64,000 bases of DNA from a virus: positions 32,001-96,000 of the IMG/VR virus record IMGVR_UViG_3300043409_001462; one strand, written 5' to 3'. The notes under the pieces were generated by a model, which worked only from the letters and a program-made list of their open reading frames with translations, made no database searches and had not been told where the DNA came from. Positions 18,223 to 35,368 of the stretch are shown piece by piece. The position numbers and the translations under genes were made by a program. Each line of letters begins with the position of its first letter. Within the stretch, counting starts at the first letter, position 1.

Positions 18223-21200
18223 TGGCAATTCAAATTCAATTTCGCAGAGGAACAGCCGCCCAGTGGGCTTCTGCGAACACTACACTTACGCAAGGTGAAC
18301 TTGGACTAGAAATAGACACAAGCTATTTTAAAATTGGTGATGGAAATACTGCTTGGACTAATTTAGGTTATGCTATATCACAGCTAGCAAATAATGCTAC
18401 ACATGCAAATAACTCTGCATATCTTGGTGGACTTATTGCTACTGGTTATCAAACCACTGCAGGACTAGCAGCTAACGTTGTTACTTTAGAAGCTAACTCT
18501 GCAACTTATCTTGGCGGTAACACAGCTGCTACGTTAAGAACATATACTGATGATAGAGCAGCTAATGCATACTCTAATTCTGTTTCGTATGTAGAAACAC
18601 AAATTAGTGGGAAAATTGCAAATTCTATTACAGCTAACTCTGCTACTGCTTACACTAACGCTGTAAACATAGCTGCAGCTGATGCATCAGCAAAAGTTGG
18701 TGGTGTTATATCTTATGTTGGTGTTGTAATTGGTACAGCTAATACTGCTATGGTTGCAAACGCTGAAGCTGCTTATACTAACTCTACAATATTCGCTTCG
18801 AACGCTACTAATATTAATACTGGTACGTTATCTGAAACTCGTTTACCATACCGTATGAACCAAAATGTTCGTACAACAGATAACGTTACATTCAATGATA
18901 TGGCGATTACTGGTAACTTGACTGTTACTGGAAATACTACAATCGTTGGCGCAAATAATCTAGTAGTTAAAGATTCTGTTATCAGTCTTCATACACAAGC
19001 TAACCTAGCTGCATGGACTTCGAATGATGGCAAGCTAGTTGGTGTTGCTTATCATTACTACGATACACAAGATCGTCAAGCTCTACTTGCGATGAATCCA
19101 TCGAATACATTTCTTACATATTACAAAACATCAACTGACGCTGCTATAGCTGATCCTACTGGTACTGATCTTGGTACTATTCAAGCTGATACTTTCTATG
19201 CTGGTAACTCTACTGTTTACTCAACAGTTAATGCTACTGTATACAGCGGAACAGCGAATAACGCATCATACTTAAATGGTAATTCAGCTGCAACGTTAAT
19301 ATCTCTTAGTAGCACATCGTATACGAATGCTGTTTCATATACAGATACCAAGATCGGTCTAGTTAACACAGCTATCACAGCTAACTCTTCTGCTGCTTAC
19401 TCTAATGCTGTACTTTATGTCGACAACAAATTATACGTCAACTCTGCTCAGTTGTCAAGCAATTTATCAAGCTATCAGACGACAGCAGGATTGAGCGCAA
19501 ATGTTGCTACTCTTACATCTAACAGTGCATCGTTTATAGGAACATTACCAGCTGTCAATGTTGTTTCTAATTCACAGTTATCTTCGAATCTAGCTAACTA
19601 CGTAACAACAACTAACCTTACAAACAACCTAGCTAACTATCAAACTACTGCTGGGTTAAGTTCAAATGTTGCTACTCTTACATCTAACAGTGCATCATTT
19701 GTTGGTGCTGTATCGGCTGCAAATGTCGTATCAAACGCCCAGCTTGTAGCAAACCTAGCTAACTACGCGACTACTACTGCAGCTACTGCATATGCAGCAA
19801 CAGCCTACTCGAATGCTGTATCTTATGTTGATGCTAAACCATACGTAAATACATCTCAGCTTTCATCTAACCTAGCTAACTACCAAACTACTGCTGGTTT
19901 GTCAGCAAATGTTGCAACACTAACTTCTAACAGTACATCGTTTGTTGGCGCTGTATCAGCTGCTAACGTTGTATCGAACACTCAGTTATCATCTAATCTA
20001 GCTAACTACCAAACTACTGCTGGTTTGGCAGCTAATGTCGCTACTCTTACAGCTAATAATAGTAGTTTTATTGGCGCAATATCTGCTGTTAACGTTGTAT
20101 CTAATTCTCAATTAAGTTCTAATCTTTCTGGGTATGCTTCATTAAGTGGTGCTACTTTTACTGGCGCTGTTCAAATTTCAAATAATTTAACAGTGTCTGG
20201 AAATATAACTTTTTCTGGTAATAGTGTTTCTGTTGGCGCAAATAGTTTAGTTATTCAAGACGCTGTTATCAGCCTTCATACTAATTCTAGTTTGGGTGCG
20301 TTATCTTCAAATGATGGTAAATTGATTGGTATAGAATATCATTACTATGATACTTCTGATAAACATGCATTACTAGCAATCAATCAATCAAACGCTTTTC
20401 TTTCATATTATAAAACTGCAACAGACGCAGCTATCGGAGATCCTACTGGTATATTACTTGGTACTATTCAGGCGGATACATTTTACGCTGGTAACTCTAC
20501 TGTATACACCACAACAAACTCTACAATTTATACTGGTACATCTAACAATACTTTATACGTAGGAACAGTATCAGCAGCCAACGTTGTATCTAATGCACAG
20601 CTAGCAGCTAACCTAGCAAACTTTGCTTCTTCTGGTTCTCTTTCAGGATACCAAACAACAGCGGGATTAGCAGCTAACGTAGCAACCTTAACATCTAACA
20701 GCACTAATTTTGTTGGTACTGTATCTGCCGCTAACGTTGTATCAAATAGTCAACTTAGCTCTAATCTTGCGAATTATCAAACTACTGCTGGCTTGTCAGC
20801 AAACGTAGCTACGCTTGCATCTAATAATGCATTGTATCTTGGAGGCGTAGCAGCTGCTTCATATGTTAATACTACTGGCTCTTATAGTATTACTGGCGTT
20901 CATACATATAACGCTAATATAGTTATTAGCACATTAGCTGGTATTTCTACTAATGGAACATTTGGTACATCTGGGCAGGTATTGACAACAAACGGTTCTG
21001 TTGTTTACTGGGCACCTACAGGCGCTGGTAGCTTTACTAATGGTCAATCTATTTCTGTTAATAATTTTGTAATTTCTGGAGTTATCACAGCTAATTCTTC
21101 TAATGGTACTGCAGGTCAGGTATTAACATCAAACAGTACTGGTGTTTATTGGGATGCGCCAGCTGTATCTATAACTGCTGCTAATGCTACTTCACAATCA

Positions 21201-21473
21201 TTTACTGGTGACAATACAACAGCAATATTTACGCTAACCAATTCAGTAGCAAATCAAAGGAACGTAATTGTTTCTATTAATGGTTTGCTGCAGGTTCCAG
21301 TAACTCATTATACTATTTCAGGAACAACATTAACATTCACTGATGCTCCTTATACTGGAGCTGTTATTGAAGCAAGAAGTATAGAAGGTGTTGCGCTTGT
21401 TAGTGGAGGTTCTGGTGGAACAATTTCTAGTGGTGATCTATTCATAGGTTCAATGCTCTTAGGCGGAATGTAA
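18222..21473 (+). CDS. long tail fibre with major-tropism-determinant N-terminal (Mtd_N/HylP-like) domain
   Basis: IQFRRGTAAQWASANTTLTQGELGLEIDTSYFKIGDG..AW..LGY is the classic Mtd_N signature; duplicated ~100-aa domain; C-terminal FTGD...SINGLLQVP..Y domain; ends MLLGGM. Confidence 0.8.
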   Translation: MAIQIQFRRGTAAQWASANTTLTQGELGLEIDTSYFKIGDGNTAWTNLGYAISQLANNATHANNSAYLGGLIATGYQTTAGLAANVVTLEANSATYLGGNTAATLRTYTDDRAANAYSNSVSYVETQISGKIANSITANSATAYTNAVNIAAADASAKVGGVISYVGVVIGTANTAMVANAEAAYTNSTIFASNATNINTGTLSETRLPYRMNQNVRTTDNVTFNDMAITGNLTVTGNTTIVGANNLVVKDSVISLHTQANLAAWTSNDGKLVGVAYHYYDTQDRQALLAMNPSNTFLTYYKTSTDAAIADPTGTDLGTIQADTFYAGNSTVYSTVNATVYSGTANNASYLNGNSAATLISLSSTSYTNAVSYTDTKIGLVNTAITANSSAAYSNAVLYVDNKLYVNSAQLSSNLSSYQTTAGLSANVATLTSNSASFIGTLPAVNVVSNSQLSSNLANYVTTTNLTNNLANYQTTAGLSSNVATLTSNSASFVGAVSAANVVSNAQLVANLANYATTTAATAYAATAYSNAVSYVDAKPYVNTSQLSSNLANYQTTAGLSANVATLTSNSTSFVGAVSAANVVSNTQLSSNLANYQTTAGLAANVATLTANNSSFIGAISAVNVVSNSQLSSNLSGYASLSGATFTGAVQISNNLTVSGNITFSGNSVSVGANSLVIQDAVISLHTNSSLGALSSNDGKLIGIEYHYYDTSDKHALLAINQSNAFLSYYKTATDAAIGDPTGILLGTIQADTFYAGNSTVYTTTNSTIYTGTSNNTLYVGTVSAANVVSNAQLAANLANFASSGSLSGYQTTAGLAANVATLTSNSTNFVGTVSAANVVSNSQLSSNLANYQTTAGLSANVATLASNNALYLGGVAAASYVNTTGSYSITGVHTYNANIVISTLAGISTNGTFGTSGQVLTTNGSVVYWAPTGAGSFTNGQSISVNNFVISGVITANSSNGTAGQVLTSNSTGVYWDAPAVSITAANATSQSFTGDNTTAIFTLTNSVANQRNVIVSINGLLQVPVTHYTISGTTLTFTDAPYTGAVIEARSIEGVALVSGGSGGTISSGDLFIGSMLLGGM
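19440..20830 (+). repeat. about 40-aa repeat QLSSNLANYQTTAGL[SA]ANVATLTSNS.SFVGAVSAANVVSN, about 6 copies in two blocks
   Basis: Visible in translation. Confidence 0.85.
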
Positions 21474-21482
21474 GAGGAAACA

Positions 21483-21809
21483 ATGGCAACAACATATAAA
21501 GTATTAGGTAATGTTAATCCAGCTTCAACAACAGCGACAACATTATATACAGTACCAGCAGCAACAAGTACAATTGTATCAACAATAAACGTTTGTAATC
21601 AAGGAGCAACTGGTTCTTTCAGAATAGCTATTAGACCAGCTGGAGCTACATTAGCAGCAAGTCATTACATTGCATATGATACACCAATCCCAGCTACTGA
21701 CTCAGTAGCATTAACAATGGGTATAACTCTAGCAACAACAGATGTTATAACTGTTTATGCTAGTTCAGCAACTATGTCATTTTTAGCATTTGGATCTGAG
21801 ATTACGTAA
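21483..21809 (+). CDS. small fibre adaptor protein
   Basis: YKVLG...TTLYTVPA...STINVCNQ...FRIAIRP...GITL...FGSEIT, a recurrent phage protein usually preceding Gly-rich tip proteins. Confidence 0.7.
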   Translation: MATTYKVLGNVNPASTTATTLYTVPAATSTIVSTINVCNQGATGSFRIAIRPAGATLAASHYIAYDTPIPATDSVALTMGITLATTDVITVYASSATMSFLAFGSEIT

Positions 21810-22891
21810 TGTCGATTAGAGTACTTTCACAAAGAAAACTCAGTAGTAATAGAATAAACACTACTAATGTTATTGCGCCTTACGCTGCAGAATACATAGT
21901 TGTAGCTGGTGGTGGAGGTGGTGGTGGAGCTGCTACGCCTGCTTGGTCTATAGGTAGTGGAGGCGGAGGCGCTGGTGGTTATCTTGCAAGCTCAGTTTTA
22001 CTAGTATCTGGAACAACATATAATTTTGTAATTGGTGGAGGAGGAGCTGGTCAAACTTATGTTCGTGGATCAAATGGGAGCAATACTACTGGATTTGGTG
22101 TAACTTCAATTGGTGGCGGTGGTGGTGGTACACAACAAATTTTTGCTGGTGCTGCAGGAGGCTCTGGTGGCGGTGGTGCAGCGGATCAAAATAATGTCGT
22201 TGGTTCTGGTGGCGCAGGAACAGCTGGTCAAGGCAGTAACGGTTCTGCAGGAGCTACTAACGCAGTTTACCAACAAGCCGCTGCATCTGGTGGTGGTGGT
22301 GGTGGAGCTGGTGCAGCCGCAACTAATCAAAATGGTGGCAATGGATTAGCCACTACTATAAGCGGTACAACAGCTTCTTTCACAGGATCAATATCAGGAA
22401 CATCATTGACTGTAAGTGCTGTTTCATACGGAACTATAAGAAGCGGCGCAGTTATAACAGGATCAAGTATACAATCTAATACAATTATAATGGGTCTTGT
22501 TGAAAATGGTGGCGTTGGAACTTACACTGTAAATGTTTCACAATTTACCTCATCAAATACTATCACAATATCACAACTTTATTATGCAGGTGGTGGCGGT
22601 GGTGGCAGTCGTGGTGGATATCCAGTTGGTACGGGTGGAGTAGGTGGAGCAGGAGACGGTAGATCTGGCGCAGCTGGTTACAGCGCTTTAGCCTACACAG
22701 GCGGTGGTGGAGGCGGATGTGGTGGAACGAATAATATAGCAGGTGGAAATGGAGGTTCTGGTGTAGTAATATTAGCAGTTCCAACAAGTTCATACACTGG
22801 AATAACTGGAGGTTCTCCAACAGCAAATAATACTGTCAGAGCTGGTTACACAATTTTAACATATACTGCATCTGGATCGTATACCGCATAA
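21809..22891 (+). CDS. glycine-rich (polyglycine-II sandwich) receptor-binding protein
   Basis: EYIVVAGGGGGG...GGGGAGG...GGSGGG...YAGGGGG...GGSGVVIL...YTASGSYTA. Confidence 0.75.
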   Translation: MSIRVLSQRKLSSNRINTTNVIAPYAAEYIVVAGGGGGGGAATPAWSIGSGGGGAGGYLASSVLLVSGTTYNFVIGGGGAGQTYVRGSNGSNTTGFGVTSIGGGGGGTQQIFAGAAGGSGGGGAADQNNVVGSGGAGTAGQGSNGSAGATNAVYQQAAASGGGGGGAGAAATNQNGGNGLATTISGTTASFTGSISGTSLTVSAVSYGTIRSGAVITGSSIQSNTIIMGLVENGGVGTYTVNVSQFTSSNTITISQLYYAGGGGGGSRGGYPVGTGGVGGAGDGRSGAAGYSALAYTGGGGGGCGGTNNIAGGNGGSGVVILAVPTSSYTGITGGSPTANNTVRAGYTILTYTASGSYTA

Positions 22892-22892
22892 C

Positions 22893-22900
22893 AATAAATA
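22893..22900 (+). promoter_or_regulatory. late promoter variant AATAAATA
   Basis: Intergenic, before the ATG at 22925. Confidence 0.5.
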
Positions 22901-22924
22901 AACAGTAACTAATTGGAATTTTAA

Positions 22925-25900
22925 ATGGCTGTTCAAAAGATACTTTCGCAACAAATAGCTAACACTGGTGGTACAGCAGGGCAGGTTCTTGTTGCCAACT
23001 CTACTGGTGTTACTTGGGGTGATGCTAATAACGCAACAAACCTCGGTGGTGTTGCGGCTGCTTCTTACGTTAACACAGCTGGCGCGTATACCAGAACAGG
23101 TGTTACTACATTTAATGCAAATGCAGTTATTGGGCCAACTGGCGAGTTAGTATTCGACGCTAATTCTGGTATCTATGCCAATGGATCACTTGGTACGGCT
23201 GGCCAGGTATTAACTTCTAATGCAACAACTATATATTGGGCTAACTCTTCTGGCGGTGGCGGTGGGTTTACCAATGGTCAGTCAATTTCAGTTAATAACT
23301 TTGTGGTGTCTGGTTCATTTACTGCTAACGGGTCAGTTGGTGCGTCTGGTCAAACATTATTATCAACTGGTACTGGTGTACAGTGGGGTACAAATTCGCC
23401 TGCGTATAATTATAGCACACAGCTTAACGGCGCTGCTCATTTTTTCACTTTTCCTTCTAATGCAGCATTTGGTTTCGGTACAGGTGATTTTACAATTGAA
23501 TGTTGGATATATCCAATAATACTGAGTGCTGGAAGTCAACCTCTTATAGATTTTCGAAATGCTAACTCAGGTGCTTATCCAACCCTATTCATAAACGGTT
23601 CAACTGTTAGTTATTACGTAAACAGCGCCACTAGAATATCTGCAGGAAGTACAATATCAAATAACAATTGGTATCACTTAGCACTTGTAAGAATAAGCGG
23701 TTCGACTAAATTATACATCAATGGTGTACAATCGGGAAGTACTTACGCTGATACTACGAATTACCTTACATCTCCCATAACCATTGGTAATTTTAATGAT
23801 GGTGTAGGTGGCTCATATACAAATGGATTAATTACAAATGCTCGTGTTGTAAAAGGAACTGGCGTTTATACAGGAGCATTTACAGTTCCAACAAGTCCAT
23901 TATCAGCAATATCTGGAACATCGCTTTTAACTTGTAATTCTATTACTCCGAGTGATTCATCATCATATAATTTTGCACCAATTAATAATGGTCTTGCTGT
24001 TGGTACAGCTACTCAATCACCATTCACCTCCACCACAGTATCAATACCAACCAGTTCACTTACTGCAGTAAACCAACAATTCACTGGCGACGGATCAACA
24101 ACTACATTCTCTGTTGCTGGTGGTTATACTCCAAATGCTATTGCTGTTTATTATAATGGTTTGAAACTTCGTAATGGTTCAGACGTTACTGTTACTAATG
24201 GTTCAACTGTTGTGTTTGCTATTGCGCCTCAAATTGGTGCAATGCTTGACGTGGTGGCATCTGTTCCAACAACTTATAGTTCGATTACTCCTGTTGGATA
24301 CAGCGTATTGTTTAACGGAACAAATCAGTATTTTACTATACCAAACAATACTGCATTTACTATGGGAACTAGTGATTTTACAATTGAATATTGGGCTTAT
24401 ATTACATCAGGTAGTAGAGATTCTAGTGTATATGCTAAAGGAGCTACTAGTGCAATATATAGATTAACTACTGGGTTTAACACATCTAATCAAGTTACGG
24501 CTGGTATACCAAATGCTGCTGGTAATGGATGGACACAACTACTTGTCGGTTCTGCTGTTTCAGTTAATAAATGGGTTCATGTAGCTTTAGTAAGGTCAGC
24601 TGGAACAGCAACTCTTTATTTAAATGGCATTGCTGTAGCTTCTGGTGCTGCTAGTAACTCTTTATATGATGATGGAACTGCTCTTGCTATAGGTACTACT
24701 GGTTCTGTAACTCCTGCTTCCTATTTTGCTGGCTATATTTCAAATTTACGTGTCGTTAAAGGCGTTGCAGTTTATACAGGATCATTCTTACCAACTGGCC
24801 CATTAGCTGCTGTTCAATTAGCAACATCAACTCAATCGGCAATCACTGGCACACAAACATCACTACTTACTTGTAACGGACCAACGATTATTGATGGTTC
24901 AACTAATGCGTTCACAATAACTAATAATGGAACTGCAACTGTATCAACTGCTATTGTTCCCACATTTACTAATGTGACGGTTACTAATACTAGTAACACA
25001 GCTGGAGGTTTTTCTTGGCAGTCTGTTCAATCAACTAATTTTACTGCTGTTGCTGGTTATGCTTATCCAGTCAATACTACAGCTGGTTCAATTACAGTAA
25101 CATTACCCGCAAGTCCATCCCCAGGTAACATTGTACAAATAACAGACTATGCTGGCACATTTGGAACATATCCAGTTACCGCTGTTAGAAATGGATCGCT
25201 TATAACTGGATTAACTATAAATGCCACTTTAGGATCATCTCGTGGAAGTTATTCTTTTGTTTATATAGATTCTACTCAAGGCTGGATAACTTATTCTGTT
25301 TCTGTAACAAATATATTTCAACCGTATGCGGCAACATATTTAATGGTCGCGGGCGGAGGTGGAGGTTCTGGTGGCTCAACAGGCGCATGGGAAGGCGGTG
25401 GTGGTGGTGCTGGTGGATTATTAACTGGAAGTACAAACCTATCGCCTGGAACAACTTACAGTTTTGTTGTTGGTGGTGGTGGACCAGGAGGTGCTGGCGG
25501 TTCGAGTGCTGGTACTTCTGGTTCAAACTCTACTGGATTTACATTATCAGCAATTGGTGGTGGAAATGGAAGAGGATCAGTAGGTGCTGGTGGAGCTGGC
25601 GGTTCTGGTGGCGGAACTTGGAATGGTGCGGGTGGCGCTGGAACAGTTGGTCAAGGTAATGCTGGAGCTTCAGGAAATGCAACTAATGCTGCTGGTGGTG
25701 GTGGTGGCGCTGGTGCTGTTGGTGGTCTATCAAATGGTGGTGTTGGTGCAGCATCATCAATTACTGGTTCAGCAGTAACATATGCTGGCGGTGGCGGTGG
25801 TAGTCAAGGCGGCGTTGGAGGAGCTGGTGGTGGTGGCAACGCCTTCAACCCTGGCACAGCTAATCTTGGTGGTGGTGGAGGAGGAGGTAGCTCTAGTATG

Positions 25901-26050
25901 GGCGCAGGTGGCACTGGTGGTTCTGGCGTTGTGATTATTTCTATACCGACAGCAAACTATACAGCAGCTACAACTGGTTCACCAATAGTAACAACAAATG
26001 GTTCAAACACCATCATTAAATTCACAGCATCTGGTTCTTATACGGCTTAA
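22925..26050 (+). CDS. receptor-binding fibre: 2 LamG/ConA-like domains, FTGDG beta-sandwich, gp34/gp10-like TLPASP domain, C-terminal Gly-rich domain
   Basis: GDFTIECWIY...WYHLALVR...LYING...GYISNLRVVKG motifs twice; VNTTAGSITVTLPASP..G..V.I.DYAG; Gly-rich tail. Confidence 0.8.
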   Translation: MAVQKILSQQIANTGGTAGQVLVANSTGVTWGDANNATNLGGVAAASYVNTAGAYTRTGVTTFNANAVIGPTGELVFDANSGIYANGSLGTAGQVLTSNATTIYWANSSGGGGGFTNGQSISVNNFVVSGSFTANGSVGASGQTLLSTGTGVQWGTNSPAYNYSTQLNGAAHFFTFPSNAAFGFGTGDFTIECWIYPIILSAGSQPLIDFRNANSGAYPTLFINGSTVSYYVNSATRISAGSTISNNNWYHLALVRISGSTKLYINGVQSGSTYADTTNYLTSPITIGNFNDGVGGSYTNGLITNARVVKGTGVYTGAFTVPTSPLSAISGTSLLTCNSITPSDSSSYNFAPINNGLAVGTATQSPFTSTTVSIPTSSLTAVNQQFTGDGSTTTFSVAGGYTPNAIAVYYNGLKLRNGSDVTVTNGSTVVFAIAPQIGAMLDVVASVPTTYSSITPVGYSVLFNGTNQYFTIPNNTAFTMGTSDFTIEYWAYITSGSRDSSVYAKGATSAIYRLTTGFNTSNQVTAGIPNAAGNGWTQLLVGSAVSVNKWVHVALVRSAGTATLYLNGIAVASGAASNSLYDDGTALAIGTTGSVTPASYFAGYISNLRVVKGVAVYTGSFLPTGPLAAVQLATSTQSAITGTQTSLLTCNGPTIIDGSTNAFTITNNGTATVSTAIVPTFTNVTVTNTSNTAGGFSWQSVQSTNFTAVAGYAYPVNTTAGSITVTLPASPSPGNIVQITDYAGTFGTYPVTAVRNGSLITGLTINATLGSSRGSYSFVYIDSTQGWITYSVSVTNIFQPYAATYLMVAGGGGGSGGSTGAWEGGGGGAGGLLTGSTNLSPGTTYSFVVGGGGPGGAGGSSAGTSGSNSTGFTLSAIGGGNGRGSVGAGGAGGSGGGTWNGAGGAGTVGQGNAGASGNATNAAGGGGGAGAVGGLSNGGVGAASSITGSAVTYAGGGGGSQGGVGGAGGGGNAFNPGTANLGGGGGGGSSSMGAGGTGGSGVVIISIPTANYTAATTGSPIVTTNGSNTIIKFTASGSYTA

Positions 26051-26059
26051 AGGTAAACA

Positions 26060-26536
26060 ATGACACAGATTCAACAATTAGGTTTTCTTGCTAATAATTT
26101 GACTGTAAATACAGCGGCCAATACAGCTACGATCACGAATGCATTGGTTGTTGGTAATAGTTCTGTTAATGTTGTTATTAATTCTTCTTCTGTTTATGTC
26201 AGTGGTGCTGCTCTTGGTGGTTCAACTAATGTCGCCGCTCAATATGCATGGACTAATACACATACATTTGGCGCCAATTTAACCATATCAAATACTTCTG
26301 AATTGATTTTAAGTACCAATGCTGGTATCTATGCTAATGGCTCGTTGGGCACAGCTGGTCAGTTATTAACATCCAATGGCACAACTGTTTATTGGTCTAC
26401 TGTTGCTGGTGGTGGGTTTACCAATGGTCAGTCTATTATGGTGTCTAATGTTGCTTTTTCAAATACATCAAACACAGCATCAGCTTATACATTCTATAAC
26501 ACATCAACAGCAAGTCTTGATACGGTATTTGTTTAA
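26060..26536 (+). CDS. short fibre linker/adaptor
   Basis: YAWTNTHTF and ANGSLGTAGQLLTSNG..VYW motifs shared with neighbours; ends YTFYNTSTASLDTVFV; coupled to the next gene. Confidence 0.65.
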   Translation: MTQIQQLGFLANNLTVNTAANTATITNALVVGNSSVNVVINSSSVYVSGAALGGSTNVAAQYAWTNTHTFGANLTISNTSELILSTNAGIYANGSLGTAGQLLTSNGTTVYWSTVAGGGFTNGQSIMVSNVAFSNTSNTASAYTFYNTSTASLDTVFV

Positions 26537-29421
26537 TGGCATTAACTTCTAGATTAACATCAGCTGGCGACTTTTTAGTTACAAACCAGTTTGACGAATA
26601 TACATTACCAAGTAGTTCATATGCTACAGTATTCAGTGGTAGCCAATATCTTTCAACGCCAAACAGTAATGCTTTTGCTTTAACTGGCAATTTTACTATT
26701 GAATGTTGGGCATATTTTAATAATTTTAGTGATTACAGAACAGTTATAGGTATGTATGCATATGGTGCCTATTCAGGAGAATGGATTTTTCAACATATAA
26801 CAGGTACTAGTAAGATGGGGTTTTACCTAACTACAATAGGTAGTATAACATCAGGTCCAACAACCCTTAGTACAAATACCTGGTATCATATTGCTATGGT
26901 AAGATCAGGCACTACAATTACAGCATATATTAATGGTGTTTCTCAAGGAACATTAACATCTTCTGCTACAATAGGATATAATAACGGACCTCTTTATATT
27001 GGAGCGCCTCAAAATATTGGTTCTGCTAGAATGAACGGATTTATATCTAATGTTCGTATAGTTAATGGTACAGCATTATATACTTCAGCTTTTACGCCTC
27101 CAATATCACCGTTAACTGCCATCACAAACACTTCATTTCTTACCTGTCAAAATCCAACAATCATTGATAATTCAACTAATGCATTAACTATAACAAACAA
27201 TGGTACAGCAACAACAACCAATGTTCCATCTACATTCTATAGTGGTTTGTTTAACGGTAGTTCTCAATACTTAACTGGGGGTGGAGGCAGCACATCTCTT
27301 TATCTTGATGGCGCTTTTACTATAGAATTTTGGATAAATGGAAGCGGTGGTGGTTTTTATAGATATATGTTTTCAAAGTTAGCTGCATATACAGCAACGA
27401 ACAATGTAAGTTTAGCTTTTAGAAACGGAAATGGTACTGCTTTCGCAATCTTTAGAGGCGGGGCTGGTGGAAGTGCGGTAGTATTTTCTGGAGGAACCGT
27501 AACAGATGGTGTTTGGTATCATATTGCTATTGTTCGTAATTCAGCCAGTAGTTTGTATAAAGTTTTCATTAATGGTGTAGGATATAATTGGGCGATAAAT
27601 GATAATGGCGTGTTTGATTACAGCACTTTTACTATAATGGGCAATCCAAACGATGGCGGTTCTTCTCTTGCTCAAACAGCAACTGGTGGATATCTATCCA
27701 ATCTTAGAGTTGTTAAAGGAACTGCATTATACACCACTAACTTTACTCCACCAACAAGACAACTAACAGCTGTGGCTGGTACATCATTATTAACGTTACA
27801 ATCGCCGACTATAATTGATAAATCTAATACACCATTAACTATAACTAATAATGGAACTGCAGTTGTAAAAAATCCAATATCATGGAATACAGTAAAAAGA
27901 GAATTTTCTGATGGAACATTCCAAACATTTAACGATATTGATGAGTATACATTACCAAATAGTGTATATGCCACACAATTTAATGGTAGCTCTCAGTACT
28001 TGAGTTTAGCATCTAATGCAGCATTTCAACCAGGTTCAGGCAGTTTTAGTATTGAAGCTTGGATATATCCATTAAATACGTCTCAAGGGTGTATAGCTTT
28101 TTTTGGCGGAACAACCTCTTATTGGGGCATACGTTTTGAAAGAAACTCTGGCGGCGGATTACAAGTTCTATTAACAACAGATGCTGCTTCTTGGCAAATT
28201 AATTATACTGCAGGAAGCGTAACAAATAATGTTTGGAGTCATGTAGCTCTAGTAAAAAATGGAACCTCTGTTTTAATATTTCTTAATGGTGTGCAAGTAG
28301 GTACAACTCAAACAATATCTGGTTCGGTTTACACAGGTGGAACTTTGAATCAAATTGGTGTTTGTTATAATGTTAATTATTTTAATGGTTATATTTCTAA
28401 TTTTAGATTTGTTAAAGGTACAGCATTATACACAGCAGCATTTACTCCATCAATAGCGCCATTAACTGCTATTACAAATACATCTTTATTAACTTGTCAA
28501 AATCCAACGATCATTGATAACTCAACAAATGCATTTACTATAACCAATAATGGTTCAGCAACAACCTCTAAAGTAACAACAGGTGCTAGTTTTATACAAA
28601 CAAAAAGTAGATTGTTTAGTGATGGAGTTTTGCAGGTTGCTAATAGTTTTGATGAATACTCAATATCAGTATTGAACGTTGATTACCTTGTTGCAGCTGG
28701 TGGCGGTGGTGGTGCTGGTTATGGGTTGAATGTTGGTGGTGCTGGTGGTGGTGCTGGTGGCTTACTAACAGGTTCCTCTGTACTAGCAAGATCAGTATTA
28801 TATACTGTTGTTATTGGTAGCGGTGGTGCTACTGGCGGAAATAATGCTAGTGGTGGAAATGGTTCGGATAGTTCGTTTACTGGAACTGGTATATCTGTCA
28901 CATCGAAGGGTGGTGGTAAGGGTGGATTCTGGAATAACGAAGCTGGTAACGGTGGTTCTGGTGGTGGTTCAACTGGCGGTGCAGGTACAGTTGCTGGTAA
29001 AGGTGTTTATCCTGGATCAACTTATCTTGATGCACCAAGACAAGGTTATGATGGTGCACTTGGTAGCGGCAACTTAGGTTATACAGCTAGTACTGGTGGT
29101 GGTGGCGGTGGTGCTGGAGGTGCAGGATCAGGATCAACAGGCGGTACAGGTGTTGCTAGTTCTATTACAGGAACCAGTGTCACATATTGCGCTGGTGGTT
29201 CTGGTGGATCGTATAGTTCAGCATCTCCTGGATCAGCCGCTCTTGGTTGTGGTGGTAGAGGTGCTTACAGTAATTTCAGTGAATTGGGTGGTTCTGGTGT
29301 TGTTATTATTCGTTTCCCAGAAGCATTCCCACCAACATCTACAACTGGCTCACCAACTGTTACTAATACTGGTGGATATAAGATTTACCAGTGGACTTCA
29401 TCTGGCTCTATTACTTTCTAA
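26536..29421 (+). CDS. receptor-binding protein: 3 LamG/ConA-like domains plus C-terminal Gly-rich domain
   Basis: Three F[TS]IE.W...W.H[IV]A.V[RK]...GY[IL]SN.R.V.GTALYT units; Gly-rich tail ending WTSSGSITF. Confidence 0.8.
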   Translation: MALTSRLTSAGDFLVTNQFDEYTLPSSSYATVFSGSQYLSTPNSNAFALTGNFTIECWAYFNNFSDYRTVIGMYAYGAYSGEWIFQHITGTSKMGFYLTTIGSITSGPTTLSTNTWYHIAMVRSGTTITAYINGVSQGTLTSSATIGYNNGPLYIGAPQNIGSARMNGFISNVRIVNGTALYTSAFTPPISPLTAITNTSFLTCQNPTIIDNSTNALTITNNGTATTTNVPSTFYSGLFNGSSQYLTGGGGSTSLYLDGAFTIEFWINGSGGGFYRYMFSKLAAYTATNNVSLAFRNGNGTAFAIFRGGAGGSAVVFSGGTVTDGVWYHIAIVRNSASSLYKVFINGVGYNWAINDNGVFDYSTFTIMGNPNDGGSSLAQTATGGYLSNLRVVKGTALYTTNFTPPTRQLTAVAGTSLLTLQSPTIIDKSNTPLTITNNGTAVVKNPISWNTVKREFSDGTFQTFNDIDEYTLPNSVYATQFNGSSQYLSLASNAAFQPGSGSFSIEAWIYPLNTSQGCIAFFGGTTSYWGIRFERNSGGGLQVLLTTDAASWQINYTAGSVTNNVWSHVALVKNGTSVLIFLNGVQVGTTQTISGSVYTGGTLNQIGVCYNVNYFNGYISNFRFVKGTALYTAAFTPSIAPLTAITNTSLLTCQNPTIIDNSTNAFTITNNGSATTSKVTTGASFIQTKSRLFSDGVLQVANSFDEYSISVLNVDYLVAAGGGGGAGYGLNVGGAGGGAGGLLTGSSVLARSVLYTVVIGSGGATGGNNASGGNGSDSSFTGTGISVTSKGGGKGGFWNNEAGNGGSGGGSTGGAGTVAGKGVYPGSTYLDAPRQGYDGALGSGNLGYTASTGGGGGGAGGAGSGSTGGTGVASSITGTSVTYCAGGSGGSYSSASPGSAALGCGGRGAYSNFSELGGSGVVIIRFPEAFPPTSTTGSPTVTNTGGYKIYQWTSSGSITF

Positions 29422-29427
29422 TAAATA
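29420..29427 (+). promoter_or_regulatory. late promoter variant AATAAATA
   Basis: Overlaps the stop of ORF 26536, before the ATG at 29451. Confidence 0.45.
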
Positions 29428-29450
29428 AGTAAAATAACAGGTAACAATCG

Positions 29451-32400
29451 ATGGCAAAACTCAATTCAGGCACAAGAATATACGGTACAGCTAACGTCGA
29501 TACCAGCATTGGCATCGGTGGTAACTTAGTTGTCAATAATACTACGTTAACAATTACTGGTAATACTACGACTGCTCCAACTGCTATTTTTCAAGGCGCT
29601 AACGTAATTATTGGTAACTCTTCTATTACTGGAGCTCCACAAGCAATATTTGCTAACTCTCTTGGTAATACCGTAATAAGCACTACATCCTTTGTATTAT
29701 CTAACTCTACAGCAGTACCATTTACTGCTAATCTTTCTGGACTGTATCACACAGGTGTTATTAATGCTGCATCCCATACAACAGGCGCACCTTTAACAGG
29801 TACAGGCGGTATTACTGCTAACGTAACAACTATAGTTGTTGGTAATAATACAATTAACACTACAATTACCTCTGCTGGTTTAACAGTTAATGGTACAGCT
29901 GTTATTGCAAACTCTATTGGTGTTTATAGCACAGGTACGATCAACGCTGCTTCACATACTGTTGGTACTAGCTTTATTGCAAACAGCACTCAGTTAACAA
30001 CAACATATCCAACAGTTCATACTGCAAACGTTACTGTTAATGGCGCTATTATTGCAAACGCTACATCAGGCACTGCTGGTCAAGTACTGACATCAGCTGG
30101 TACTGGTAACGTATACTGGTCAACTGCATCTGGCGGTGGCGGTGGGTTTACCAATGGTCAGTCAATTTCAGTCGCTAACCTTGCAGTTACTGGTTCGCTG
30201 ACTGCTGGCGCATCAGTTGGTACATCTGGACAAGCATTAGTATCAACTGGTACTGGTGTACAATGGGGTGCATTGTCACCTGGATATAATTATAGTTCGC
30301 AGTTCGGTGGTGGTAATCAATATCTTGGTATTACTGCTTCAAACGCAGCATTTGGTTTTGGTACTGGTGAATTTACAATAGAAGGTTGGTTTTATCCAAC
30401 TCTTAATCCTGCAAATGGTGTTGGCACTATTTTTGAATTTAGGGTGACGAATAACGCATCTGCTCTTACAATGCGAATCAACACTTCGCTTCAATTAGTG
30501 TTTTATGATGGTGGCGCGAACGTAGAAACTGCATTTACAACTAGAACAGTTTCTTTAAATGCATGGCAGCATGTAGCATTTGTTAGAATTGGTAATACAG
30601 TATATGGATATATCAATGGATTATTAGCAGGAAGTGTTGCAGTAACTTCTAACCTTGGTAGTTCTCAACCTTTTTATATAGGCACAAATCAAACTGCTGG
30701 TTATAATTATTACGGATTAATTTCTAATGTTCGTGTTATTAAAGGAACTGGAATTTATACAGGTGCATTTACGCCGCCAACTTCACCACTTTCAGCTATA
30801 TCAGGCACATCAGTATTAACTTGTAATGCTATAACACCAACATCTGATTCATCAACGAACGCATTTCAATTTACGAATGGTAATGGCGTCACCACAACAG
30901 CCACTCTATCCCCATTCACATCCACAACAGTATCAATACCAACAGCATCACTAACCGCTGTCAGACAACAGTTCACTGGTGATGGGTCAACTACAACATT
31001 TGCTGTTGCTGGTGGATATACACCTAATGCCATTTCTGTATTTGTTAACGGTGTATTACTTCGCAATGGTACTGAAGTAACAGTAACGAACGGTTCAACT
31101 GTTGTGTTTGCTATTGCTCCTTTGAGTGGAGCATTGATTGATGTTATTGGAACTGTTCCAACAACTTATAGTTCGATTACACCTGTTGGATATAGTGTTG
31201 GGTTTAATGGAAGTAGTCAGTATTTAAGTGCTACTAATAATCCAGCATACGTTTTTGGAACTGGTAATTTTACTGTTGAACTATGGTTATATCCAACATC
31301 TGTTACAGCTTCAACTACAACTAAAGTTATAATGTCTACCTATCAAGATGCGTCTAATGGTTGGACTATCGGATTAAACAACACAAACAATTCTCTCTAT
31401 GTATCAGTTGCTGGTGACAGTGCAACGATTACTGATGGTTCTGGCACAATTGCAATAAATCAATGGTATCACATTGCTTTGGTTCGTAACGGTACAACAT
31501 TAACTTTATATAAAAATGGCGTAAGCATTGGAACACCATTAACTAATTCAACAAATATATCATCAACTTCAATACTTTCAATTGGTGCGTCAACTGGAGG
31601 AACTTTATTTTTTCCTGGGTATATTTCCAATGCTCGTATTACAAAAGGTGTAGCAGTTTACACCAACAACTTTACAGTCCCTCCTTCTCCATTAGCAGCA
31701 GTACAATCAGCTTCTGGTGCTTATATCCAAGCAATTACTGGCACACAAACATCACTACTCACTTGCAACGGACCAACTATTATTGATGGTTCAACCAACG
31801 CATTTACGATAACTAATAATGGTTCTGCACCAGTATCAACTTCTATTGTGCCTACGTTTACTAATGTTACGATTACAAATCCTATTACCTCCTTTTTGGC
31901 ATCTTATCTTGTTGTTGCTGGTGGTGGTTCTGGTGGTGCAACCAGTTCTGGTACTAGTTCTGGTGGTGGTGGGGGTGGTGCAGGAGGGGCGCTTACAGGC
32001 TTAACAACATTTACTGTTGGATTAACATACTATATCACTGTTGGTGCTGGTGGTGCTTCCACAAATCTTCTCGGCAACAACGGTGCAAATTCTCAAGTAG
32101 TAAACTTTTCAACTTTTTCAATAGTAGCAATTGGTGGTGGTGGTGGCGGAGGATCAACCAATGCTGCTACTGTAAATGGTCAAAGTGGTGGATCTGGTGG
32201 TGGCGGCGGAAATAACAGCGGAGCAAATGCGCCTGGTGGTTCAGGTACATCTGGTCAGGGATATGCAGGAGGAACGCTTAGTGGCTATGCTGCTCCAAAC
32301 TATCCAGGTGCTGGTGGCGGGGGAGCAGGTGCAGTTGGTACATCAGTTACTAGTGCTACAGTAGGTGGTAATGGTGGTGCTGGAATATCATCATCTATCA

Positions 32401-32717
32401 CTGGAACATCAATAACATATGCAGGTGGCGGAGGTGGTTCAACATATAATGGAGGAACTCCTGGCACGGGTGGCTCTGGTGGTGGAGGTGCTGGCGCAAC
32501 TGGCGCTACTGCAGGAACTGCAGGAACAGTTAATACAGGTGGAGGTGGAGGAGGAGCTGCACAAGGATCCTATTCTGGTGCTGGTGGTTCAGGTGTTGTT
32601 ATACTCTCAATACCAACAGCAAACTATACTGGAACAACAACTGGATCACCAACTATAACGACAAACGGAATATACACCGTATTGAAATTCACAGCATCTG
32701 GCACATATACAGCTTAA
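29451..32717 (+). CDS. receptor-binding fibre, paralogue of ORF 22925: 2 LamG, FTGDG domain, Gly-rich C-terminus
   Basis: Same architecture and near-identical linkers to ORF 22925. Confidence 0.8.
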   Translation: MAKLNSGTRIYGTANVDTSIGIGGNLVVNNTTLTITGNTTTAPTAIFQGANVIIGNSSITGAPQAIFANSLGNTVISTTSFVLSNSTAVPFTANLSGLYHTGVINAASHTTGAPLTGTGGITANVTTIVVGNNTINTTITSAGLTVNGTAVIANSIGVYSTGTINAASHTVGTSFIANSTQLTTTYPTVHTANVTVNGAIIANATSGTAGQVLTSAGTGNVYWSTASGGGGGFTNGQSISVANLAVTGSLTAGASVGTSGQALVSTGTGVQWGALSPGYNYSSQFGGGNQYLGITASNAAFGFGTGEFTIEGWFYPTLNPANGVGTIFEFRVTNNASALTMRINTSLQLVFYDGGANVETAFTTRTVSLNAWQHVAFVRIGNTVYGYINGLLAGSVAVTSNLGSSQPFYIGTNQTAGYNYYGLISNVRVIKGTGIYTGAFTPPTSPLSAISGTSVLTCNAITPTSDSSTNAFQFTNGNGVTTTATLSPFTSTTVSIPTASLTAVRQQFTGDGSTTTFAVAGGYTPNAISVFVNGVLLRNGTEVTVTNGSTVVFAIAPLSGALIDVIGTVPTTYSSITPVGYSVGFNGSSQYLSATNNPAYVFGTGNFTVELWLYPTSVTASTTTKVIMSTYQDASNGWTIGLNNTNNSLYVSVAGDSATITDGSGTIAINQWYHIALVRNGTTLTLYKNGVSIGTPLTNSTNISSTSILSIGASTGGTLFFPGYISNARITKGVAVYTNNFTVPPSPLAAVQSASGAYIQAITGTQTSLLTCNGPTIIDGSTNAFTITNNGSAPVSTSIVPTFTNVTITNPITSFLASYLVVAGGGSGGATSSGTSSGGGGGGAGGALTGLTTFTVGLTYYITVGAGGASTNLLGNNGANSQVVNFSTFSIVAIGGGGGGGSTNAATVNGQSGGSGGGGGNNSGANAPGGSGTSGQGYAGGTLSGYAAPNYPGAGGGGAGAVGTSVTSATVGGNGGAGISSSITGTSITYAGGGGGSTYNGGTPGTGGSGGGGAGATGATAGTAGTVNTGGGGGGAAQGSYSGAGGSGVVILSIPTANYTGTTTGSPTITTNGIYTVLKFTASGTYTA

Positions 32718-32726
32718 GGGTAAATT

Positions 32727-34967
32727 ATGGCATACAATCAACAATTATCAGTATTAAGTCAGGTTGCTCCAGCTACCACAGGAACAGCTGGTCAGGTGTT
32801 AGTTTCAGCGGGTAGTAGCGCAAGTTCATATTGGGCAAGTGCAATACCAGTGAGTGCATATAGTGCTCAGTTTATTGCAAGCACAACAGGGTTAAGTGTC
32901 GCTTCAAATGCAGCTTTTGGGTTTGGTACTGGTAATTTTACTGTTGAATTCTGGATGCATATAACTGCAAACCCTGGCACTACTGCAAGTATAATGCACG
33001 GTACTGCTTCGAGTGCGTTCATTATAAATTTCAGTTCAGCTGGAAGAATAATTGTAAGATCGTATGGAATAATTGATTTATTAACTGCTTCTACTTCAGT
33101 CAACTTAAATGCTTGGAATCACATAGCTGTTACACGAAGCGGAACAACTTTAACTATATGGTTAAATGGAGTAAGCGCAGGAACAGTAACAGATTCTACT
33201 TCATTTGCAACTACTGGGCTTTATATTGGAAGAGAAGATTCTGGAGTAAGCTCATATTATTATAATGGATATATATCAAATTTTCGCATCGTAAAAGGTG
33301 TTGCAGTATACACAGGCGCATTCACGCCACCAACAAGCCCACTAGGAACAGCACAAGCTGCTGGAACTAATATAGCAGCCGTAACACCTTCGCAAGTTAG
33401 TTTATTAACTTGTAACGGACCTGGATTTAAAGACTCGTCATCAAATGCATTCGCTATAACTAATATTGGTAATGTCATAGCATCCCAATTTGCTCCATTC
33501 TCATCATTCTCTGCAATAGCAAGATCAGCAACACAAACACAAACAATACTAACATCTGGTTCTGGAACATATTATACACCATCAGGTGTTGCTTGGTTGC
33601 GTATTCGTATGGTTGGTGGTGGAGGTGGTGGCGCAGGTGGTGGTGGTTCTGGTACTGATGGTAGTGTTGGCGCTAATACAACCTTTGGTTCATCGTTTTT
33701 AGTTGCTGGTGGAGGCAGTAATGGTATAAAATCCAATGGCCCTGGTGGTGCTGGCGGTACATCTTCTATTGGTTCAGGAGCAACTGGTGCATCTATATCT
33801 GGCGGTTCAGGCGAAGGTGGTGGATATGGCGTTTACGCAAAAGGTGGGGATGGTGGTTCTTCAGCTTTTGGTGGAAGTGGTCTTGGTGGTCGGCATGGTG
33901 CGTCTATTAATAGCGGTGCTGCTGGAGCAACAAATAGCGGCGCTGGTGGTGGTGGTGGTAATATCAATAATGCTTCGAATGATAGTGCTGGCTCTGGTGG
34001 CGGCGCTGGCGGATATGTTGAAGCATATGTATCAAATCCTGCAGCATCTTATGCATATACTGTAGGAGCAGCTGGTGCTGGTGGTGCTGGTGCTGGACAG
34101 GGTGCTGCTGGTGGCGGTGGTGGTTCTGGCATCATTATTGTTGAAGAGAATTATGCTGTAAACGCATCAAGTACTGGCGTTTATCCTGCAACTTATTTAA
34201 TTGTTGCTGGTGGCGCTGGTGGTTATGGTAACTGGGGCGGTGGAGGAGGCGCAGGCGGAGTAATCACTGGTGACACTACATTTGTTGCAGGAACAACATA
34301 TACTATGACAGTTGGTGCTGGCGGTGCAGCAGCTACTGATGGCGTGAATTCATATATTAATAATCTTGGTGTTCAAGCATATGGTGGTGGAACAGGACGA
34401 GGTGCTTTAGGTGGTAATGGTTCAAATGGTGGTTCTGGCGGTGGAGCTGGTGGGAACCAATCCGGTGCTACTACAAACGGTGGTTCCGGAATATCAGGAC
34501 AAGGGTCGAATGGTGGAGGTGCTATTGCTAACGTAAATCCAGGTGCTGGTGGAGGCGGTGGTGCAGCATATCCTGGAGTTCAATCAACTGGTACGGTTGC
34601 AGGAAATGGTGGTTCTGGTATATTAAATACAATTACAGGCTCATCTGTAACTTATGCTGGTGGAGGTGGAGGTGGCAACGGCGCTGGTCAAACAGCTGGA
34701 ACAGGCGGCGCAGGTGGTGGAGGAAATGGTGCCACAGCAACAGGAGGTTCTGTAGTCAACGGAACAGCTGGCACCGCTAACTTAGGTGGTGGTGGTGGTG
34801 GTGGTTCAACTAATGGCGGGTTAGGTGGCGCTGGTGGTTCTGGCGTTATCATCATATCAATTCCTTCTGCTAACTATACAGGTATAACATCAGGTTCACC
34901 AACAGTAACAACTAACGGCAATTACAAAGTATTAACATTCACAGCATCAGGCTCTTATACAGCCTAA
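32727..34967 (+). CDS. receptor-binding protein: 1 LamG plus two tandem Gly-rich domains
   Basis: LamG motifs; SGSGTYYTPSGVAWLRIRMVGGGGGG...GSGIIIVEE followed by YLIVAGG...FTASGSYTA. Confidence 0.8.
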   Translation: MAYNQQLSVLSQVAPATTGTAGQVLVSAGSSASSYWASAIPVSAYSAQFIASTTGLSVASNAAFGFGTGNFTVEFWMHITANPGTTASIMHGTASSAFIINFSSAGRIIVRSYGIIDLLTASTSVNLNAWNHIAVTRSGTTLTIWLNGVSAGTVTDSTSFATTGLYIGREDSGVSSYYYNGYISNFRIVKGVAVYTGAFTPPTSPLGTAQAAGTNIAAVTPSQVSLLTCNGPGFKDSSSNAFAITNIGNVIASQFAPFSSFSAIARSATQTQTILTSGSGTYYTPSGVAWLRIRMVGGGGGGAGGGGSGTDGSVGANTTFGSSFLVAGGGSNGIKSNGPGGAGGTSSIGSGATGASISGGSGEGGGYGVYAKGGDGGSSAFGGSGLGGRHGASINSGAAGATNSGAGGGGGNINNASNDSAGSGGGAGGYVEAYVSNPAASYAYTVGAAGAGGAGAGQGAAGGGGGSGIIIVEENYAVNASSTGVYPATYLIVAGGAGGYGNWGGGGGAGGVITGDTTFVAGTTYTMTVGAGGAAATDGVNSYINNLGVQAYGGGTGRGALGGNGSNGGSGGGAGGNQSGATTNGGSGISGQGSNGGGAIANVNPGAGGGGGAAYPGVQSTGTVAGNGGSGILNTITGSSVTYAGGGGGGNGAGQTAGTGGAGGGGNGATATGGSVVNGTAGTANLGGGGGGGSTNGGLGGAGGSGVIIISIPSANYTGITSGSPTVTTNGNYKVLTFTASGSYTA

Positions 34968-34987: not shown

Positions 34988-35368
34988 ATGGGGCATTTTG
35001 CAAAAGTAGTAGACGGAAAAGTATCACAGGTAATTGTTGCGGAGCCAGACTTCTTCGACACATTTGTTGATTCATCACCTGGTCAGTGGATTCAAACTTC
35101 ATATAATACAAGAGGTAATGTTCACTATGCACCAAACTCAAATGAGCCAGATGGTGAACCAGCACTAAGAGGCAACTATGCTGGTATTGGATACACATAC
35201 GATGCAGTCAATGATGTGTTTTACCCAGAAAAACCATACAACAGTTGGACGCTTTCAGAAACAACATGGTCTTGGGAAGCACCTGTTGCTTATCCAGACG
35301 ATGGTAAGTATTATACTTGGAACGAAGAAACTACAGCTTGGGTAGAAGTAACAGTTCCCGAAGCATAA
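34988..35368 (+). CDS. conserved small protein associated with Gly-rich receptor-binding proteins (putative assembly chaperone)
   Basis: MGHFAKV...WIQTSYNT...LRGNYAGIGYTYD...F..PKPY.SW.L......WEAPV.YP.D...Y.WNE; strong RBS aaggag. Confidence 0.7.
   Translation: MGHFAKVVDGKVSQVIVAEPDFFDTFVDSSPGQWIQTSYNTRGNVHYAPNSNEPDGEPALRGNYAGIGYTYDAVNDVFYPEKPYNSWTLSETTWSWEAPVAYPDDGKYYTWNEETTAWVEVTVPEA

Follow-up and report, generated by a model that had tools for sequence, protein, structure and literature searches.

The long tail fibre of phage T4 is built from gp34, gp35, gp36 and gp37, whose consecutive genes encode consecutive end-to-end segments with small connectors between shaft and tip. In the T4 baseplate, the XD2 and XD3 domains of gp10 bind gp12 and gp11 (5IV5; PMC8825819, PMC6872550). 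These domains are beta-jellyrolls whose trimers bind partner trimers, namely gp11 and gp12 on T4 gp10 and TSP1-3 on TSP4 of the Kuttervirus CBA120 (Chao et al. 2022, PMC8825819). In Klebsiella podophages of the KP32/KP34/K11 type, a branching domain in receptor-binding protein (RBP) 1 and a conserved N-terminal peptide of RBP2 form a validated pair (PMC6872550; PMC13352976). Branched receptor-binding complexes underlie the broad host range of CBA120, G7C and Klebsiella jumbo phages, and are the basis of plug-and-play phage engineering. Here we analysed a 64,000-nucleotide (nt) stretch, bases 32001-96000 (hereafter the window), of IMG/VR virus record IMGVR_UViG_3300043409_001462, which is 173,384 bp long and rated complete in IMG/VR. 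We propose, with a probability of roughly 0.6, that eight of its genes (P0001-P0008, 18222-34967) together specify a single branched complex for receptor binding in a T4-like myovirus, with at least four kinds of joint, one of which would involve a small domain bearing the motif Q-x-FTGD (the FTGD domain).

The FTGD domain and its predicted fold

A sequence-only reading of the window had described a Q-x-FTGD...NG...AP..GA domain in the genes starting at 18222, 22925 and 29451, and a six-frame motif scan found it in all three (starts at nt 21201, 24080 and 30972). Profile search of the whole genome detected exactly three FTGD domains, those of P0001, P0004 and P0007, whereas a fourth FTGD string at nt 41824 lies inside a neck protein and has no domain similarity. 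The large open reading frames (ORFs) of the window are all on the + strand, as are the features of P0001-P0008 given below. The domain occupies residues 985-1056 of the 1083 amino acids (aa) of P0001 (21174..21389; profile E 1.9e-24), residues 376-449 of the 1041 of P0004 (24050..24271; E 2.6e-32) and residues 498-571 of the 1088 of P0007 (30942..31163), and is therefore internal or C-terminal, never N-terminal. E values of 1e-24 to 1e-35 against the family profile exclude a chance similarity. The copies in P0004 and P0007 are 78% identical, and that of P0001 shares 28% and 31% identity with them, respectively. Class-specific profiles split the copies cleanly into type II (P0001, score 148 vs 26 for type I) and type I (P0004 and P0007, score 136 vs 0-20 for type II, with 0 for P0004).

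We examined the fold on an AlphaFold2 (AF2) model of the P0007 copy (mean predicted local distance difference test score, pLDDT, 84.5), in which DSSP assigned a long first strand (4-14) and a long last strand (67-77). With the VIA aligner, the model superposed on XD2 of CBA120 TSP4 (7rfv 178-250) with Z 8.7 and a root-mean-square deviation (rmsd) of 1.7 A over 67 residues, on TSP4 XD3 with Z 7.2, on T4 gp10 (5iv5 155-252) with Z 7.1 and rmsd 2.5 A over 78 residues, and on the N-terminal domain of T7 gp17 with Z 8.6-9.1 and rmsd ~5 A. TSP4 XD2 and XD3 match each other with Z 8.7, and TSP4 XD2 matches gp10 XD2 with 5.9 (PMC8825819). Further matches comprised fibre N-termini of several podophages together with spore-appendage (F-Ena) and pilin domains, and a Foldseek search with the model returned nothing at E<=0.001. 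Nearly all of the best-matching solved structures are modules by which phage proteins attach or branch, and the model falls among beta-jellyrolls of ~60-80 residues superposable on XD2/XD3. Because the AF2 model superposes best on phage attachment modules, the FTGD domain is, as modelled, a fold-level member of the known branching/anchoring domain class and not a new beta-sandwich. The suggestion that it acts as a socket agrees with this predicted fold, which is that of the docking and branching sites in T4 gp10, CBA120 TSP4 and G7C gp66 (PMC8825819).

The FTGD family is large, with 8909 proteins at E<=1e-3 when 1.84 billion cluster representatives were searched with the profile. Among 63 family copies, 46 match PF03906 (Phage_T7_tail) at E<=0.01 and 30 match DUF4183, and the relatives P0015 and P0017 exceed the PF03906 cut-off with 56-66 bits. 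A PDB sequence search with the FTGD alignment gave a sole specific match, to two tandem copies in the N-terminal region of the K1 capsule depolymerase 9k4a; the other matches were antibody light chains and were attributed to chance. On a 216-kb contig, a 1244-aa protein (L117:10001-13735) carries nine copies from residue 3 onwards, six of type II and three of type I, interleaved with collagen repeats; such an array may have a purely structural role or make the protein a hub with many sockets.

Covariation of socket and plug classes

Searches with the FTGD profile, with P0005, with only the N-terminal cap and with unrelated queries supplied the related loci (L numbers), whose FTGD domains were counted with HMMER --max (filters off) in stop-to-stop frames. 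Two plug classes were defined, MV (MA[VK]Q[KR][IL][LF][SP][QI]Q) and QQ (M-x-Q-x-Q-Q-L-x-x-L-x-Q/N). The termini that the sequence-only reading had singled out are all present, namely MAVQKILSQQI (22925), MTQIQQLGFLA (26060), MAYNQQLSVLSQ (32727), ...SMLLGGM, ...SLDTVFV and M-A-L-T-SRLTSAGDF...FDEY, and they are kept in other phages on otherwise different proteins. The MV-class plug of the window is MAVQKILSQQIAN, residues 1-13 of P0004 (22925..22963). QQ plugs start the 158-aa P0005 (26060..26536; residues 1-45, QQ-cap profile E 5.5e-22) and the 746-aa P0008 (32727..34967; nt 32727-32765, found by the plug regular expression).

The nearest FTGD domain upstream of every MV plug is of type II (6 loci: the window, L005, L007, L030, L032 and L137), and that of every QQ plug is of type I (~18 transitions in 11 contig lineages: the window, L127/L133, L005, L007, L009, L017, L109, L115, L137, L138 and L141/142), with no exception to either pairing among these related loci. 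The 6/0/0/18 table gives a Fisher p of ~7e-6 if the loci are taken as independent; they are related, and the true figure is weaker. The pairing holds over varied carriers, with hubs of ~225 to >1655 aa, MV plugs on proteins of 175, 479, 832, 854 and 1041 aa, and QQ plugs on proteins of 158 to 2715 aa. Both plugs are thus short N-terminal peptides of the KP32 kind, kept on otherwise different secondary proteins. In L133, a P0001 homologue with the same N-terminus carries a socket of type I and precedes a QQ plug, which represents a natural swap, and a 175-aa protein of L137 consists only of an MV plug, a type I FTGD domain and a greasy tail. Because the chain-ending plug proteins P0008, L007_14223 and L004_9531 carry no socket, the numbers of sockets and plugs are equal in the window (3:3), L007 (3:3) and L127+L133 (4:4). 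Proteins encoded just before QQ plugs show no conservation at their C-termini, and therefore these plugs probably use no end joint. Plain adjacency, with the socket gene one or two genes upstream of the plug gene, was found in 14 of 20 cases, which is not clearly above expectation for a dense fibre cluster and was therefore not counted as evidence.

Gene-neighbour statistics in related genomes, which the sequence-only reading had named as a check on its branched tree, thus show that socket class covaries with plug class. Its proposal of orthogonal docking pairs is supported in kind, as judged from sequence, since the plug class at the start of the next capped fibre follows the socket class without exception, including after a socket swap on the same hub. 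Its view of P0001 as a hub with two outputs, one running from the C-terminal tail to the adaptor at 21483 and the tip at 21809 and the other from the type II socket to the protein at 22925, also agrees with these results, as does its view of the proteins at 22925 and 29451 as tipped fibres, each carrying one side socket.

Several observations weigh against the FTGD domain as a socket for these plugs. The Z values of 7-9 are only moderately above those for unrelated small sandwiches. The window copies match positions 9-93 of 157 of PF03906 and miss its cut-off of 25.2 bits (24.3 for P0001 and 20.6-20.9 for P0007, with the P0004 copy unlisted), and DUF4183 is also just below its curated cut-off. 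The domain is a very common module, often found with collagen; tandem arrays of 2-21 copies are common, and some have collagen repeats alongside. The related loci are phylogenetically non-independent, and plug and socket often lie on the same paralogous protein; alternation alone is therefore expected from duplication. In a sample of 160 unrelated LamG (Laminin_G_3) loci, chosen without regard to either feature, FTGD domains occur in 52 and MV or QQ plugs in only 2. Moreover, hubs with 3-6 FTGD copies do not match the QQ plugs in number (5 vs 2-3 in L109, 3 vs 1 in L138, none in L118/L119), and the genes after them encode small fibres that start differently. The blind sample and the mismatched hubs indicate that the domain has other partners or roles too, and its abundance and tandem arrays likewise point to use as a simple structural bead or to binding of different partners. 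The stronger claim, that the domain is a dedicated socket for these particular peptides, therefore fails on the arrays of up to 21 copies and the ~50 loci that lack the plugs.

Such data could also be explained if the domain were a mere spacer bead and the gene order had arisen by tandem duplication of paralogous fibres, each attaching independently to the baseplate. The arrays with their collagen association, the F-Ena and pilin domains among the structural neighbours and the 50 FTGD loci without MV or QQ plugs fit this explanation, and P0004, P0006, P0007 and P0008 are clear paralogues (P0004 and P0007 share 46% identity over 1054 aa). However, a spacer does not account for socket and plug classes that covary without exception on very different carriers and swap together in L133, nor for the L137 protein reduced to plug, FTGD domain and tail, the chain-ending proteins without FTGD, or top solved matches that, with few exceptions, are phage modules for attachment or branching. 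Carrier variety, the L133 swap and the socket-less chain ends go beyond what duplication alone explains, and we regard the spacer explanation as unlikely. Still less probable is that the FTGD domain anchors its own carrier to the baseplate or another fibre in the manner of T7 gp17, with the downstream N-termini docking elsewhere. In this phage the domain never stands at an N-terminus, P0001 is already capped by an Mtd_N domain and P0004 has its own conserved N-terminal plug, although the domain is N-terminal in the podovirus loci L013/L014 and in Pelagibacter podophages. The profile similarity to PF03906, a family founded on the domain that fixes the T7 fibre to the tail, and the high Z of the T7 gp17 N-terminal domain speak for an anchor, but the rmsd of ~5 A to that domain is far worse than the 1.7 A to TSP4 XD2, and the socket/plug covariation would be left unexplained.

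End joints and the proposed assembly

P0001 (18222..21473) ends in a greasy tail, ...LFIGSMLLGGM (21438..21470), a candidate plug for the adaptor P0002 (21483..21809; 108 aa), which is modelled as an eight-stranded jelly roll (AF2 mean pLDDT 94.2). The P0001 stop lies 9 nt 5' of the P0002 ATG with GAGGA in between, and TAATG overlaps connect 21483 with 21809 and 26060 with 26536. The tip P0003 (21809..22891; 360 aa) consists of a Gly_rich_2 domain alone (PF21722, 49.2 bits). The junction running from MLLGGM through 21483 to 21809, which the sequence-only reading had listed among other paired ends, is a conserved end-to-end joint (joint A) that works without the FTGD domain. Only 7 of 45 tail-bearing upstream proteins carry the domain, always <=390 nt from the tail, and therefore joint A does not need the socket. 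P0002 has >555 relatives in IMG/VR with 60-83% identity. Across 80 loci, the tail motif [FLM]-[LM]-L-[MIGA]-G-[AGM] ends 44 of the 46 unique proteins just upstream of P0002-like genes compared with 18 of 962 other genes (Fisher p 9e-60), and this genome has exactly one greasy-tail ORF, which adjoins its single adaptor. Downstream, 43 of 62 unique genes overlap the adaptor stop by one base. The consensus start of 59 unique tips is M-[AS]-[IV]-[SKR]-[TRK]-[LN]-[SN], which the P0003 N-terminus MSIRVLSQRKLS fits, and the bodies behind it range from 108 to 2142 aa.

The best solved match of the P0002 model is the trimeric cement protein of KHP40 (Z 10.1), followed by other trimeric or pentameric jelly rolls such as nucleoplasmin and TNF/C1q-like domains. 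A PDB sequence search gave no solved relatives for the P0002 alignment or for P0005, and the PHROG matches of P0002 (phrog_1276, 693 and 11338) are not the gp35/gp36 families. In natural fusions, P0002-type domains stand N-terminally on Gly-rich, RCC1 and TIG tips, and the 484-aa 'tail fiber protein' of S-CAM22 has a P0002-like domain at its N-terminus. P0193-P0196, apparent fusions of upstream protein and adaptor, are probably frame errors and were not used. A complex prediction of three P0002 chains with three copies of the last 45 residues of P0001, run with alignments, gave a score of 0.02 and a mark of 0.32 and is uninformative either way. For joint A only, P0002 might instead be a chaperone of tail-fibre assembly, binding the greasy tail while it folds and staying out of the virion, given that its small gene lies directly 3' of a fibre gene, where fibre chaperones are usually encoded, and that its fold is a generic jelly roll. 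We consider this improbable: P0002 is translationally coupled to a hypervariable tip gene, the natural fusions put its domain at tip-protein N-termini, and BFVD lists structural relatives of it from MaMV-DC, S-TIM5 and S-SCSM1 under the name 'virion structural protein' (names as in source).

The cultured cyanophages P-RSM4 of Prochlorococcus (L123, 26471-30433) and S-CAM22 of Synechococcus (L124, 23446-27408) encode a 1320-aa annotated tail fibre with an FTGD domain 2-5 residues from its C-terminus, followed by small proteins starting MA(I/T)TR(I/V)SxNQI. The 483-484-aa fibre encoded before it starts MA(N/K)QGLLAQ and lies 3' of a protein ending QQFFY(A/S)GF; the P-RSM4 copy has no P0002 profile match. 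Both phages could serve as experimental models. In addition, a second adaptor class of 118-120 aa starting MANPNI, absent from this window, lies 3' of fibres ending ...A(I/L)(I/V)FGG and 5' of tips starting MTRVR (L133:6098-6454, L137:7791-8147, L141:18154-18516 and L142:16681-17043), and forms a separate joint of the tail-adaptor-tip kind, with a code of its own.

A second end joint (joint B) connects P0005, which ends in ...AYTFYNTSTASLDTVFV, with the 961-aa P0006 (26536..29421), which starts with the joint peptide M-A-L-T-SRLTSAGDFLVTNQFDEY. As the sequence-only reading had noted for SLDTVFV and SRLTSAG...FDEY, the two ends belong together: the end ...Y-x-Y-Y-N...[LI]-D-[TF]-V-[FW]-[VG] and the start M..[TA]RL.S.GD...[FL]D[ED] recur jointly in L004/L127, L005, L125, L137, L142, L121 and L117, the last being the unrelated 216-kb contig. 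However, this joint also works without an FTGD domain. In L121 the adaptor has an Mtd_N cap in place of the QQ plug, and the two ends of the adaptor are therefore independent modules. The start motif SRLTSAGDF..FDEY returns at residues 454 and 689 of P0006 (window 26536-28665). Because these copies each precede a new module and the P0006 relatives in L004 and L005 have the motif only at the N-terminus, the P0006 sequence suggests a fusion of three units that once started separately. Moreover, giant LamG genes of the P0006 type are always followed by a gene of the P0007 type, starting MAKL(N/Q)xG(T/S)RxYG (the window, L004, L005, L121, L137 and L142). At this junction (29421-29486) the upstream C-termini all end in F and are otherwise weakly conserved. 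The adjacency of 26536 and 29451, which was not part of the earlier reading, may be a fourth joint.

P0001-P0008 lie within a run of fibre-like genes that spans 9.2-40.3 kb of the window. P0001 has an Mtd_N-type cap (PF18454, residues 5-43, 51.5 bits vs cut-off 26.3), a long repetitive shaft, a distal shaft module (residues 845-1001), the type II FTGD domain and the greasy tail. Its shaft module (20754-21224) shares 50% identity (BLASTP) with residues 7-181 of P0004 (22943-23467); this common module has repeated G-x-x-GQVLTS...W motifs and GGFTNGQSI(S/M)V, and also occurs in P0005, where it separates the QQ plug from the C-terminal joint, and in P0007. The four paralogues combine Laminin_G_3 domains (PF13385, 72-175 bits vs cut-off 27.6) with C-terminal Gly_rich_2 domains; the Gly-rich heads of P0003, P0004 and P0006-P0008 score 43.8-57.4 bits vs a cut-off of 24.3. 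In order, P0004 (22925..26050) has the MV plug, shaft module, LamG, type I FTGD, LamG and Gly-rich head, P0006 three LamG domains and a Gly-rich head, P0007 (29451..32717) the N-terminus MAKLNSGTRIYG, LamG, type I FTGD, LamG and Gly-rich head, and P0008 the QQ plug, LamG and two Gly-rich domains, with no socket. A 122-126-aa protein starting MGHFAKV (phrog_7759, function unknown) always lies 3' of the last Gly-rich fibre of the chain (window 34988-35368, L004:11644-12024, L005:8479-8847, L007:15357-15734 and L125:369-740), and could be a chaperone or a fibre-module terminator.

Directly 3' of the fibre genes, at 40.3-45.2 kb, PHROG matches identify T4-type neck, sheath-stabiliser and terminase genes. 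The closest nucleotide matches (~66-75% identity, in parts of the terminase and sheath genes) are cyanophage, Pelagibacter, Methylophilales, Sinorhizobium and Stenotrophomonas myophages. Therefore, the source is an uncultured T4-like myovirus. Lake metagenomes are the source of most related contigs. An HD-domain phosphohydrolase gene (phrog_990, 41054-41611) is flanked by the gp13-like and gp14-like neck genes.

The domains, their fold class, the conserved termini and the class covariation constitute the observations, and from fold and covariation we infer all physical contacts, that the domains are trimeric and how the finished assembly is shaped. P0001 would be the hub, reached through its Mtd_N cap. 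The ~72-residue FTGD domain, a predicted T4 gp10-like beta-jellyroll of the XD2/XD3 type, would as a trimer present a surface on which the next fibre docks with its N-terminal peptide. In this way the MAVQKIL-type plug of P0004 would enter the type II socket near the P0001 C-terminus, while the M-x-Q-x-QQL-type plugs of P0005 and P0008 would enter the internal type I sockets of P0004 and P0007, respectively. At joint A, P0002 would hold the greasy tail of P0001 and carry P0003 through the conserved N-terminus of the tip; at joint B, the ...LDTVFV end of P0005 would join the start of P0006; and at a possible joint C, P0006 would be followed by the MAKLNSGTRIYG start of P0007, perhaps continuing the chain. 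P0003, P0004, P0006, P0007 and P0008 would each end in a Gly-rich head. The gene order would then be a depth-first walk, with a socket protein followed by the partners of its own C-terminus and then by the protein that plugs its socket.

Comparison with known receptor-binding systems

If this assembly is correct, the same socket fold is also used by uncultured T4-like phages of aquatic habitats, whose fibre heads are lectin-like and glycine-rich. The results also suggest that matched socket and plug classes are readable from sequence, and the conserved termini of the two end joints would allow fibre architecture to be predicted from metagenome gene order. The tail-adaptor-tip joint, being so widespread in IMG/VR, is a concrete target for structural work, and we found no published description of it; a literature search on LamG/glycine-rich fibres of freshwater T4-like phages likewise found nothing. 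More tentatively, and with somewhat less than even odds in our judgement, freshwater T4-like phages may use orthogonal joints as a combinatorial assembly code, in which two FTGD socket classes with their plugs and at least three end joints, laid out in depth-first gene order, build a multi-level fibre with at least five adhesin heads, and the tail/jelly-roll-adaptor/tip joint is a docking system in hundreds of environmental phages.

The TSP1-4 complex of CBA120 (PMC8825819; 7REJ, 7RFV) resembles the proposed assembly in that a ~70-residue beta-jellyroll, XD2 or XD3, lies on a hub fibre and the docking proteins are encoded by neighbouring genes; its complex is multi-level and branched, as the one proposed here would be. 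In contrast, the sockets described here are near the C-terminus or in mid-fibre instead of in an N-terminal AD-XD1-XD2-XD3 block, and occur once per protein instead of as a tandem pair. The heads are LamG and Gly-rich domains, whereas those of CBA120 are beta-helix tailspikes, and the plug peptides differ. T4 gp10 shares the fold class and belongs to a T4-like myovirus. However, it is a baseplate wedge protein with fixed partners, while the FTGD domain is spread over exchangeable fibres, and no gp10 homologue was identified in this window. T7 gp17 shares the fold class and a detectable profile similarity (PF03906) but has its domain at the N-terminus, where it anchors the fibre to the adaptor/nozzle, unlike the internal or C-terminal window copies, which score below the curated cut-off. 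The T4 long tail fibre has no detected sequence relation to the end joints as judged by the PHROGs of P0002, and differs from joint A, which combines a conserved C-terminal hexapeptide with a jelly-roll adaptor.

In KP32-type phages, as here, a short conserved N-terminal peptide marks a secondary RBP whose gene lies just downstream of the RBP with the branching domain, and the bodies are exchangeable. The pairing is experimentally validated there and inferred from fold and covariation here, and the host and head types differ. Moreover, this phage has two socket and two plug classes, and its docking would be serial, up to four levels deep. Therefore, a branching domain with a conserved N-terminal peptide on the next RBP is already known (PMC6872550, PMC13352976), as is its structure in CBA120 (PMC8825819), whereas two matched socket/plug classes in one phage, the depth of serial docking, the LamG/Gly-rich heads and the two end joints appear to be new.

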